From Thermodesulfobacteriota bacterium (GTDB lineage: Bacteria; Desulfobacterota; Binatia; Bin18): a stretch of 64,000 nucleotides of DNA. The notes below the pieces were generated by a model, which was not told the origin of the DNA, searched no databases, and saw only the letters and a program-made list of their open reading frames with translations. Of the stretch, positions 39,597 through 52,529 are shown in pieces. Made by a program: the position numbers and the translations under genes. The stretch is taken from the NCBI GenBank assembly GCA_964291405.2, contig OZ219926.1, positions 2,848,001 to 2,912,000 of the forward strand, written 5' to 3'. Position 1 is the first letter of the stretch. Every line of letters starts with the position of its first letter.

Positions 39597-39669
<73 letters not shown>

Positions 39670-50152: not shown

Positions 50153-51418
50153 TCAACCCAGCAGGTCCTCATCCCGGCGTACATAGAGGTCTGCCGCTGC
50201 CTGGACCTCGGCCTGATTATCGGGTCGGCCGTTGCTCACCAGAATCGGCGAGTCGCCGGTGCTACCGAGATCGTTGGCAAGCACACGGGCGGTGACCTTA
50301 TTCCGGCTGGTGTGACTGTGCGCCGTTCCGCCTGCGCCCTGCATGACAACGGCCGGAGACTTGCCGTTGAAAACATTCCGGGAGAGCGTCGCGACAACCT
50401 CGTTGTCCGTGGTCTCGACGTTGTCCAGGCCGGACCCACCGACCAGACGGACCGCGTGTGCCTTCCAGTCGGCGATCTCATTCCGATCAATCACAATGCG
50501 ACAGGTGTTATGCCGGGCCTCTCCCAGCGCCCCGTGAACGGCGATGCCCACCGGACTGTTGGTAATCGTATTGCCCGAAAGCAGGGCGGTGAGCTGGCCG
50601 TGCTGGGGTACTTTCTCCGCCAGGGGAATGGCGGTCAGGATGTTGATACCAAACTGCTTGTTACCCCGGAGGGTGTTGTCCGCGACGGTCAGCGCCTGCC
50701 GATTGGACGACGGTCCGAAAGAACACGAGAACAGCAGGCCGCCCCGTTCACAGTCTTCAATCGTATTGCGCAGGATCGCGGCGTCAAAGGACACCGCGTC
50801 CGGTTCGGGAAAGAAACAGATAAAGGCGAGACCGTCGGCAAAGCAGCGGCGCATGGTATTGCCGGTAATGAGGAGATGGTTGCGCTGGTCGGCCCGGGCT
50901 TCGGCAAAAATATGGTGGCCCTGGCGCGCGCCCGTTCCGCGCGGCAGGGATGGCTCGAAGCGTTCCAGTCCGTTGTCTGAAAAATCACAGTCTGTTATGG
51001 TCGCCGCAGTGACCCCGCATAAGAAAATACCGTGATCCCCGTGGTTGCTGATCGTGCACGCGCGAACCGTAACCGAGGCGGACGGGGGAACGCCAATTCC
51101 GTGCCCACCGCCCTGGGTGACGGTCACGCCACTCAGACTCGTCCCGTCTGCGAGGACGACGACCGACTGCTCCGGTTGGATCGGATGAAAGGACGGGGCG
51201 AAGTGTCCCTCTCCGTCAATAATGCATTCCTGTCTGGCAGCGCCTTGAACCCGGACGCCGGGCGGAACGGTTAAGGGCAAACGCTCTCCGGTCAGAGACG
51301 GGGAGTAGCGGCCGGGCTCGATCAGGATAACATCGTCCGGCTGAGCCTGCCGGAGGGCTTCTGAGAGCGAACGCGCATCGGCATGAGCCGCGTGAGGCGA
51401 GACAAAAATCGTCTTCAT
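50153..51418 (-). CDS. Right-handed beta-helix protein (DUF1565-like)
   Basis: PGRYS...GERLPL N-terminus; repeated I.GN.I turns. Confidence 0.7.
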   Translation of the reverse strand: MKTIFVSPHAAHADARSLSEALRQAQPDDVILIEPGRYSPSLTGERLPLTVPPGVRVQGAARQECIIDGEGHFAPSFHPIQPEQSVVVLADGTSLSGVTVTQGGGHGIGVPPSASVTVRACTISNHGDHGIFLCGVTAATITDCDFSDNGLERFEPSLPRGTGARQGHHIFAEARADQRNHLLITGNTMRRCFADGLAFICFFPEPDAVSFDAAILRNTIEDCERGGLLFSCSFGPSSNRQALTVADNTLRGNKQFGINILTAIPLAEKVPQHGQLTALLSGNTITNSPVGIAVHGALGEARHNTCRIVIDRNEIADWKAHAVRLVGGSGLDNVETTDNEVVATLSRNVFNGKSPAVVMQGAGGTAHSHTSRNKVTARVLANDLGSTGDSPILVSNGRPDNQAEVQAAADLYVRRDEDLLG

Positions 51419-51490
51419 CGTTCTTCCTTAAAGGTGCCGGTCGGCATGAAAAAGGTACTGAAACGCCTGGAAAACATACGGAGAAGGGTC

Positions 51491-51570
51491 AAAAAAAGGC
51501 CCGAATGAAAACATCCGGGCCTAGGGCTCAAGACGGCGGGGTTCCCACACTCCGGACGTCTCTACGCACC
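51491..51570 (-). ncRNA. Predicted ~80-nt small RNA (RNA-A)
   Basis: TTGACC (51603-51598)-17 nt-TAGGGT (51580-51575) promoter; terminator AGGCCCGGATG-TTTT-CATTCGGGCCT plus T run (51522-51491); no ORF. Confidence 0.55.
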
Positions 51571-51817
51571 CAGCACCCTAGCGAACTCCACCCCCAGGGT
51601 CAATACCTGAAGATTCACAAAAAGTATTGTTTGTGTCGCATTGGTCCAGAGCTGCGGGGCGAATTTAGAACATTCTGTTATTTTGGGACAGCTATTTTTA
51701 ACAACACCATTTTAAGTTGACGAACTCCTTATTTCAAAAGGACTTTTTTTTGAAAAAACTTTTCCAAAATGCCATTTGGTTATTGACGCTTTTCTGTTGT
51801 TTTGGTAAAAAATTGTT

Positions 51818-52047
51818 CCAGAAAGAGCTTTGCCTAGGGTTCACGGTCAGGAATGGGGTTCCCAACCAAGAATGGAAGTCGTTGAAAATGAGCGTAAGGG
51901 AGCGAATGCGCTTCCCTAGCGGTTCTTTGAACTTCCACACTCCGGACGCGGACGCTACTGCGAGGTAGACAGGATCAACCCGGAAGTTGATCCACAGGCG
52001 AGCGAATTCAAACGAGGAAGGCCCTGTGAAGGGCCTTCCTATTTTTT
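51818..52047 (+). ncRNA. Predicted ~230-nt structured RNA or leader (RNA-B)
   Basis: TTGACG (51783)-17 nt-TAAAAA (51806) with extended TG; several hairpins; ends at a strong terminator. Confidence 0.55.
52015..52047 (+). terminator. Intrinsic terminator or attenuator just upstream of the 52060 gene
   Basis: AGGAAGGCCCT-GTGA-AGGGCCTTCCT-ATTTTTT. Confidence 0.8.
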
Positions 52048-52059
52048 AGGTAGTAACTC

Positions 52060-52443
52060 ATGGCAACCGATCCAACCGAAAAGCTTCCCAAAATCAAGGT
52101 CTCCAGCGCCTATCCGGGCGAGTGGTATATCGTTGAGGTAGACGGTGGCGATGGTGACTTATCCATGGAGCTGCGTCGTCCGGTGGGTGAGGAGGACTCA
52201 GATGTCTTCCACCTCACGATTACAACAACGGCGCGGCCGTTTGATGTCAAAAGCGCGCGTGACGGCGGAGAGGCGCATACCCACGAAGGCGCTCATTCGA
52301 CCCACCTGACCTTTACCAGTCCCCAGGCGGTCTGGCCGGATTTTGTCCGCTGTGTGCAAGCCCTTGCCAGCATCTTTGATACGCTGGCAACCACGCCGCT
52401 CGACCGCGAAAAGGTCCGCGAGAATCTGCTGAAGAAAAAATAA
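52060..52443 (+). CDS. Hypothetical protein
   Basis: 127-aa ORF with plausible composition; no recognised motif. Confidence 0.65.
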   Translation: MATDPTEKLPKIKVSSAYPGEWYIVEVDGGDGDLSMELRRPVGEEDSDVFHLTITTTARPFDVKSARDGGEAHTHEGAHSTHLTFTSPQAVWPDFVRCVQALASIFDTLATTPLDREKVRENLLKKK

Positions 52444-52529
52444 TGGGGCCGAGCCGTCCGTCTCCGTCGCGCTATAAAGAGTAAACGTGTCCAGCATTAT
52501 CCATGCTCATTGGAGGACACGTTCACTCT

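Follow-up and report, generated by a model that had tools for sequence, protein, structure and literature searches.

Two predicted divergent RNA units occupy the gap between a beta-helix gene and a small protein gene

We analyzed a 64,000-nucleotide (nt) stretch of the genome of a Thermodesulfobacteriota bacterium of the class Binatia, hereafter the window, focusing on a pair of divergent non-coding RNAs that an earlier reading of the DNA (the original prediction) had placed there. The genome that holds the window, G000, comprises 4,947,718 bases and is 97.5% complete. The pair lies in a 640-nt gap that is bordered by a beta-helix gene on the minus strand (50153-51418) and, on the plus strand, by a gene for a protein of 127 amino acids (aa; 52060-52443). 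Our analysis supports two divergent units, each ending in a terminator on the strand proposed, whose transcripts would be complementary in three blocks. Read from promoter hexamer to terminator, they measure ~78 nt (51491..51568, minus strand) and ~229 nt (51819..52047, plus strand), in line with the ~80 and ~230 nt first suggested. The three direct repeats were found at the positions claimed for them: block 1 (51519-51530 and 51832-51843) is identical at 11/12 positions, block 2 (51538-51547 and 51855-51864) at 10/10 and block 3 (51545-51558 and 51935-51948) at 14/14. Their order is colinear in both units, and the single difference in block 1 turns into a G.U pair between the short and the long RNA. 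The 14-mer of block 3 occurs only these two times when both strands of the whole genome are searched. As argued below, the short RNA (small RNA, sRNA) is probably a repressor of messenger RNAs (mRNAs) for histone-like proteins rich in lysine and alanine (Lys/Ala-rich), and the long RNA a relative of those mRNAs.

The sRNA, whose 5′ end we placed from the -10 hexamer, consists of a 5′ stretch that could mask ribosome-binding sites (RBSs), a seed stem-loop, a single-stranded linker and a terminator. A putative sigma-70-type promoter precedes it on the minus strand (TTGACC-17 nt-TAGGGT, 51575..51603, with the -35 at 51603-51598 and the -10 at 51580-51575). Conservation is given throughout as mean pairwise identity over 14 sequences of the genus, and by this measure the promoter scores 0.97; across genera its -35 is invariant and the -10 keeps the form TAnnnT. 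The 5′ stretch (51554..51566, minus strand) is predicted to pair with the region from the Shine-Dalgarno sequence (SD) to the AUG of Lys/Ala-rich protein genes, and 12 of its 13 positions match the RBS text in other genera. The seed (51538..51558, minus strand, the complement of the plus-strand text) is made of the short-unit copies of blocks 2 and 3, which overlap here by 3 nt, while block 1 (51519..51530) forms the linker between the stem-loop and the terminator. The terminator itself (51491..51522, a hairpin at 51522..51497 followed by T7) contains a compensatory GC/AU stem pair. The sRNA folds at -39.1 kcal/mol (z -4.2 against shuffles), and in an alignment of 29 distinct homologues the consensus fold includes a terminator pair with GC, AU and GU variants.

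Nineteen of the 24 other genomes in the genus have the entire gap conserved, as against 0/16 genomes from outside it. By DNA, the short unit matches in 22/28 genus genomes, in one of them (G022) over 29 nt only. A covariance model built from the 29 distinct copies places the sRNA in 37/55 genomes of the family; in a class-wide sample of 151 genomes it gave 12 strong matches (66-107 bits), all within the family, and the next best, at 33 bits, looks like a terminator. A metagenome scan for further copies returned four loci, three of them near-duplicates of loci already in the set, and added no statistical power. The original prediction had named a match of the long RNA to a known Rfam family as grounds for abandoning it, and no family matches. 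Over the whole window at gathering thresholds, Rfam reports only the transfer RNA gene at 39597-39669, and across 51300-52200 at E up to 10 the best match reaches 21.4 bits against a cut-off of 112 and is carried by the terminator. Hfq (PF17209) was not found in G000, although control searches were positive in five known genomes, and at 97.5% completeness this absence fits long-duplex, chaperone-independent pairing. In four loci from more distant genera (L074, L075, L078 and L079, ~1330-1440) the beta-helix and 127-aa genes flank a shorter gap in which no sRNA is recognizable; this gap has a terminator-like hairpin on the minus strand and a plus-strand stretch that resembles the seed in the sRNA sense (CTGGAGTGTGGCAGG).

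Contigs from RNA libraries touch the locus. Run X2, on record as a metatranscriptome, gave a 194-nt contig on 51825-52018, which spans from just after the proposed start of the long RNA to the foot of its terminator, and nothing else across 51200-52500. Run X1 gave three low-depth pieces (51273-51428, 51400-51550 and 51583-51785), and run X4, from a relative at ~89% identity, covers nearly all of 51200-52500. Run X3, from a relative ~93% identical, gave a contig that extends from the beta-helix gene across the sRNA as far as 51672 and then into Illumina adaptor, which hints at an RNA end at that position; we identified no matching promoter. We take uncovered parts and contig depths as evidence neither of absence nor of expression level.

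One alternative is that the short unit serves the downstream beta-helix gene as a 5′ leader or attenuator instead of being a free sRNA. The unit does lie 73 nt upstream of that gene and on the same strand in all loci, including those of G003 and G009, and the contig joins the two. We nevertheless consider this very unlikely, because a strong terminator with its T7 closes the short unit, the spacer between it and the gene is poorly conserved (identity 0.65), and G013 has the gene without the short unit. Further, the co-evolution with an unlinked gene that we describe below would be unexpected of a cis-acting leader.

The long RNA resembles small-protein mRNAs of sister genera

The long unit is preceded on the plus strand by a putative promoter (TTGACG-17 nt-TAAAAA, 51783..51811, with the -35 at 51783-51788 and the -10 at 51806-51811) that has an A/T-rich tract upstream and is conserved in all 29 aligned loci. 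Blocks 1 and 2 (51832..51864) belong to a 5′ segment of 45 nt (51826-51870) with an identity of 0.97. Between blocks 2 and 3 lies a variable hairpin (51871..51934) at 0.75, near the neutral level, for which the yardsticks are the third codon positions of both flanking genes (0.75-0.78) and the spacer (0.65). Block 3 (51935..51948) takes the place that an RBS would formerly have held; its complementarity to the sRNA extends over 14-16 nt, and the segment it opens (51935-52012) has an identity of 0.875. With values of 0.97 and 0.875 against 0.75-0.78, the ends of the long RNA appear to be under purifying selection, which is not what a neutral relic would show. A 3′ element at 51996..52003 pairs with the 5′ end in both fold and alignment to form a closing stem, whose pairs at columns 2-10 and 193-200 are kept in 20/20 sequences, and the unit ends in an intrinsic terminator (52015..52047, a hairpin at 52015..52040 followed by T6) with compensatory stem pairs. 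Promoter and terminator are kept in 19 of the 21 genus genomes that have the sRNA. The RNA folds at -88.6 kcal/mol (z -4.06 against shuffles), and its minimum-energy structure contains the TGGAAGT/ACTTCCA hairpin. The original prediction saw no hydrophobic toxin open reading frame (ORF) here, and this was borne out: neither the ORF list nor an alignment of 20 genus homologues contains a conserved ORF in 51819-52047, the indels in that alignment are not multiples of 3, and relatives have lost a 9-codon ATG ORF that lies within the hairpin.

What the unit may once have been can be seen in sister genera. Of 10 distinct loci in the family's other genera, 9 have a plus-strand unit that reads as an mRNA: blocks 1 and 2 come first, at its 5′ end, and a strong SD then leads into a Lys/Ala-rich ORF of 18-22 aa, about half lysine, of the type MAAKKAAAKKPAKK. 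In three pairs of these ORFs that are in register, the differing codons comprise 18 synonymous changes and 1 nonsynonymous change, arguing that the ORF is a real gene. The peptide is polycationic, has no hydrophobic stretch, and gave no Pfam match when a 20-aa example was searched. The SD-AUG stretch of this small gene and the 5′ end of the sRNA are complementary. The sister unit ends in an AGGCGG-like element and a terminator, homologous to the 3′ end of the long RNA in the window, to which the 3′ untranslated regions (UTRs) of its protein-coding relatives are also homologous; the element can pair with the 5′ end in the same manner. The small ORF is absent in the genus of the window and in one other lineage, L070.

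The divergent layout and the predicted pairing to a 5′UTR are also what a classical type I toxin-antitoxin (TA) locus with a toxin ORF hidden in the long RNA would look like, and a 5′-3′ closing stem such as that of the long RNA is found in several type I toxin mRNAs. With no conserved ORF, indels that ignore the reading frame, a 9-codon candidate that relatives lack, and a sister-genus peptide that is polycationic and not hydrophobic, we regard this as highly improbable, the least likely of the explanations considered here.

An unlinked H1-like mRNA carries the seed site

Outside the locus, the longest match in the genome to the sRNA pairing text is a perfect 15-nt stretch at G000:C3:1557329, corresponding to the first 15 nt of the 51538..51558 text. 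It lies in the 5′UTR of a gene that we call H1-like, 19 nt upstream of the SD of an 85-aa Lys/Ala-rich ORF (G000:C3:1557362-1557619). The RBS text and the 3′UTR of this gene are homologous to those of the locus units and their relatives, and the 5′-3′ closing-stem arrangement, which sister-genus mRNAs also have, recurs beside it. Within an otherwise variable 5′UTR the seed site stands out as an island of conservation. We found the gene through the seed match; a search for short Lys/Ala-rich ORFs elsewhere in the genome with a 45-aa limit missed it and returned three unconvincing ORFs. Chance would give roughly as many 13-nt matches to the pairing text as the four others that we found, at G000:C3:3245869(-), 4401146(-), 456080(-) and 2608903(+). 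As a 15-nt match by itself is not significant, the weight of the argument rests on evolution.

We therefore compared the occurrence of the sRNA and of its site over the 55 family genomes, counting a seed-type site when it lay within 38 nt of the SD. Such a site is present in 34/37 genomes with the sRNA, including all 21 of the genus. It occurs in 3/18 genomes without the sRNA, those three being 80-82% complete, and in 0/11 of the sRNA-minus genomes that are at least 95% complete. Individual genomes illustrate how the target decays: G019, which has no sRNA, retains the H1-like gene as a pseudogene that has lost its SD, its start codon and most of its ORF, while in G022, where the sRNA is deleted, the H1-like ORF is cut to 22 aa and the site has four changes. 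In G012 and G016 the H1-like gene sits behind a different 5′UTR. The two partners also share an indel, in that an extra A in the seed (CACAAC as opposed to CACAC) is concordant between the sRNA and the H1-like 5′UTR in 27/27 genomes in which we read both, 20 without it and 7 with it. Together, conservation and co-loss suggest that the sRNA and its target depend on each other.

Shared sequence at separate loci could also reflect a protein that binds DNA. Here, the repeated box GGGGTTCCCACAC would be the operator of a transcription factor that co-regulates the three loci, with RNA pairing incidental. The box lies just downstream of three putative promoters, and an indel common to two loci could follow a change in protein specificity. 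An operator would leave unexplained the second and third complementary stretches (block 1 and the anti-RBS stretch), a 78-nt unit that ends in a terminator, and the predominance of G.U-compatible variants reported in the next section, and so we hold it to be a very improbable account.

The sRNA is predicted to bridge the hairpin of the long RNA and to cover the H1-like initiation region

We cofolded the RNAs and used 60 mononucleotide shuffles of sRNA nt 1-50 as the null. For the sRNA with the long RNA, the free-energy difference (ddG) is -19.9 kcal/mol compared with -4.0 +- 2.5 for the shuffles, none of which came as low (0/60). In the predicted complex blocks 1, 2 and 3 are paired, the hairpin is still folded and the sRNA bridges its base, which agrees with the arrangement first proposed. 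For the sRNA with the H1-like mRNA, ddG is -21.5 kcal/mol compared with -8.6 +- 3.2 (0/60), and the predicted pairing covers the seed site, the SD and the AUG. RNAduplex run on the full-length RNAs gave unrealistically long duplexes and was set aside. Blocks 2 and 3 of the long RNA amount to a 21-nt mimic split around the hairpin (10 + 14 nt), as compared with the 15-nt site in the H1-like 5′UTR. The long RNA thus appears, from its sequence, to carry a copy of a real target's sRNA-binding site, which is the hallmark of a target mimic.

For changes across relatives, we compared 20 distinct sRNA-long RNA pairs at 36 paired positions. Of the resulting 720 cells 653 are Watson-Crick, 51 are G.U, 14 are mismatches and 2 are gaps, so that 704/720 are paired. 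Among 25 distinct variant states of these pairs, 17 are compatible with pairing and 8 disrupt it. The original prediction had expected compensatory changes, and we found compensated double changes at two positions. One is a block 1 position in L016, for which L015 shows a wobble intermediate, and the other is a block 3 position in L029.

A model in which the sRNA represses histone-like mRNAs and the long RNA acts as a decoy

On balance, and with moderate confidence, we favor the view that the sRNA is a dedicated, family-specific and Hfq-independent repressor of antisense type that acts on Lys/Ala-rich histone-like mRNAs, and that the long RNA is an ORF-less paralogue of these targets kept as a decoy and/or as a leader. 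Independence from Hfq is probable in itself. We hypothesize that the seed in the first stem-loop pairs with the conserved 5′UTR site of Lys/Ala-rich, H1-like mRNAs and that the 5′ end of the sRNA pairs with the SD and start-codon region, so that translation would be blocked by a long, two-part duplex. The long unit would descend from one such target mRNA, which encoded a peptide of 18-22 aa. In the genus of the window the ORF and its RBS would then have been lost, while the sRNA-binding blocks were kept and lengthened into a split 21-nt mimic brought together by the hairpin. The most likely role of the long RNA would be to titrate the sRNA away from the 85-aa H1-like mRNA, as a decoy or sponge, and it may also, and probably does, serve as a terminator-bearing leader of the 127-aa gene. 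The data themselves show the sequences, their conservation, their co-occurrence and the predicted pairing; from them we infer the transcription start sites, repression and titration, as well as harm from the unrepressed protein, for which the decay or rewiring of the H1-like gene in genomes without the sRNA is indirect evidence. For the long RNA we still prefer the undescribed sRNA-sponge pair of the original prediction, but the best-supported target is the unlinked H1-like gene outside the window; the same source's idea of a two-piece RNA gained no support.

Several observations weigh against this model. Each unit had been given its own promoter and terminator, and the terminators stood, but a consensus promoter scan flagged neither proposed promoter, although conserved hexamers are present, and its sole match is on the minus strand at 51737..51709. 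The RNA-library contigs carry no information on strand, ends or level. The H1-like assignment rests on composition, with Pfam HC2 (PF07382) scoring the 85-aa protein below threshold (E = 0.034, 14.7 bits, cut-off 40). By our own estimate ~0.4 matches of 15 nt are expected by chance per genome, and 11-mer seed matches show no enrichment genome-wide (105 seen, ~103 expected). In addition to the 8 variant states that break pairing, the two compensated positions fall short of significance, since column shuffles of the genus sRNA-long RNA set reach the mismatch count in 79/500 cases and the number of doubly changed pairs in 64/500. Duplex energy did not separate the targets from 3,998 sampled genomic windows (p = 0.018 per window for the H1-like site, 0.06-0.07 for the long RNA), and because it does not discriminate we used exact matches, cofolding with shuffles, and evolution instead. 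The genomes are kin, so that a small number of losses underlies the co-occurrence and perhaps a single event the indel, and one metagenome locus of the sister type lacks the extra A. Finally, G003 and G009 have the sRNA and miss the long RNA, which makes the decoy dispensable.

The losses in G003 and G009 bear equally on the possibility that the long unit is the decaying relic of a small-protein gene, with blocks left over from common descent and former sRNA control and with no present function. The ORF is lost in this genus and present in 9/10 of the sister-genus loci, the central hairpin changes at a near-neutral rate (0.75), and the covariation is not significant. A deletion in G022 (L017, ~1480-1510 after re-orientation) also crosses the unit. 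It lies between the two block-2 copies, removes the sRNA and both promoters, and fuses the left side of the short unit to the long unit; with its junction inside the block-2 repeat, it indicates that the direct repeats can recombine. The conservation of the 5′ 45 nt and of 51935-52012 above that of third codon positions and spacer argues against a relic, as do the promoter and terminator retained in 19/21 genomes, the RNA-library contig on 51825-52018, and a block 3 complementarity that was extended to 14-16 nt after the ORF was lost. We judge a functionless relic to be unlikely, and slightly more so than the attenuator discussed next.

The T-run of the long-unit terminator stops at 52047, and the 127-aa gene has its start codon at 52060. 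The 12 nt in between leave that gene no room for a promoter of its own, and read-through is the probable source of its expression. G013 has neither RNA, and there the long-unit promoter sits directly before the 127-aa gene. These facts would also fit a long unit whose main role is in cis, as leader or attenuator of the 127-aa gene, with the sRNA acting in trans on read-through or on leader stability. The leader has three GGAAG and several CUUCC stretches that make alternative pairings possible, and the single-sequence and alignment folds pick different partners for CAACUUC. In the predicted sRNA complex, however, the terminator hairpin is unchanged, and we saw no CAACUUC alternative that competes with it. 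Further, the spacing from terminator to gene in sister genera ranges from ~45 to several hundred nt. We regard a mainly attenuating role as unlikely.

Extending the decoy model, we speculate, tentatively and as something more doubtful than the model itself, that the locus and its unlinked target form a three-part circuit for the control of nucleoid-condensing, H1-like proteins in Binatia: a potentially harmful polycationic protein, an sRNA that restrains it, and an mRNA-derived decoy beside the sRNA gene that would release the protein on induction. It is similarly no better than possible that, within such a circuit, loss of the ORF from a target gene gave rise to the decoy and that the lengthened, split mimic forms a three-way junction.

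Comparison with known systems

Type I TA pairs such as tisB/istR-1 and zorO/orzO are divergent, and their target RNA has a small, usually hydrophobic toxin ORF. The present locus is like them in that the sRNA gene is divergent from its target, direct repeats are complementary to the target 5′UTR, antisense pairing is predicted (blocks of 12, 10 and 14 nt) and a tiny protein is encoded in sister genera. It is unlike them in that the long RNA of the window has no ORF, the sister peptide is polycationic, and a further predicted target of the sRNA is unlinked to it.

RNAs that act as sponges or anti-sRNAs by mimicking a target site include AgvB acting against GcvB, SroC, the 3′ETS of leuZ, and chb mRNA acting against ChiX. 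As in those cases, the site at which the sRNA binds its target is duplicated on a non-coding or untranslated RNA, which could thereby titrate the sRNA. Here, however, the source of the mimic would be a target paralogue whose ORF was lost, the mimic is encoded beside the sRNA gene, and it is split by a hairpin, so that binding would form a three-way junction.

The closest functional parallel is IhtA of Chlamydia. As described in PMC4355289, this sRNA represses translation of hctA, which encodes the histone-like protein Hc1, by pairing at the initiation region, with a functional contact of 6-7 nt around the AUG; IhtA also controls a second basic-protein target (see also PMC3469542 and PMC8343073). 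Both cases involve an sRNA and the initiation region, here by prediction, of an mRNA for a small, very basic, Lys/Ala-rich histone-like protein. The contact predicted here is different from the 6-7 nt given for IhtA, since it combines a 15-nt seed in the 5′UTR with the SD-AUG region. The present system differs also in belonging to Binatia, in having an ORF-less target paralogue next to the sRNA gene, and in being known from sequence alone. With no Rfam match to it in the window, we detected no sequence relation to IhtA.

A full-text literature search found no paper on small RNAs of Binatia or Binatota. Members of this class are uncultured, and the locus offers a testable sRNA with a defined class of targets, the tiny Lys/Ala-rich histone-like proteins. 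It would also provide a natural example of a sponge RNA arising from a target gene whose coding function was lost, with the ancestral coding state visible in sister genera. If the model is correct, sRNA control of bacterial histone-like proteins would extend beyond Chlamydia. Were the more doubtful three-part circuit to hold as well, it could switch cells into dormancy or into a state with a compacted chromosome, in the manner of the Chlamydia histones.

Neighboring genes and the control region

The gene downstream of the sRNA (50153..51418, minus strand) encodes a 421-aa beta-helix protein that is DUF1565/NosD-like. On the other side, the 127-aa gene (52060..52443, plus strand) has 42 related loci and its product belongs to no Pfam family. 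By eye the protein is net acidic, and its gene always follows a Lys/Ala-rich unit or the relic of one. A weak protein-atlas lead, which relates the 127-aa protein at a score of 0.80 to clusters with TumE in 24-38% of their members, was left unused because shuffled proteins reach that score one-third of the time.

The control region between the two promoters (51611..51782) contains A/T tracts and conserved boxes. Its 117 nt from 51666 to 51782 have an identity of 0.92 within the genus, are recognizable across genera, and contain the TAGAACAnnCTGTTA box and a T8-G-A6 tract. RNAalifold found no conserved fold in the region between the promoters (0.0 kcal/mol on the plus strand and -0.8 kcal/mol on the minus strand), and 51666-51782 presumably acts as DNA in the regulation of one promoter or of both. 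In sister loci (L085:980-1000, and likewise L069, L070, L071, L077 and L082), a near-consensus sigma-54-type promoter lies on the plus strand ~170 nt upstream of block 1, with the motif TGGGAC-5 nt-TTGCA and its GG and GC 10 nt apart. Positions 51640-51662 of the window are a degenerate counterpart of this motif, which is lost in the genus while the region downstream of it is still conserved.

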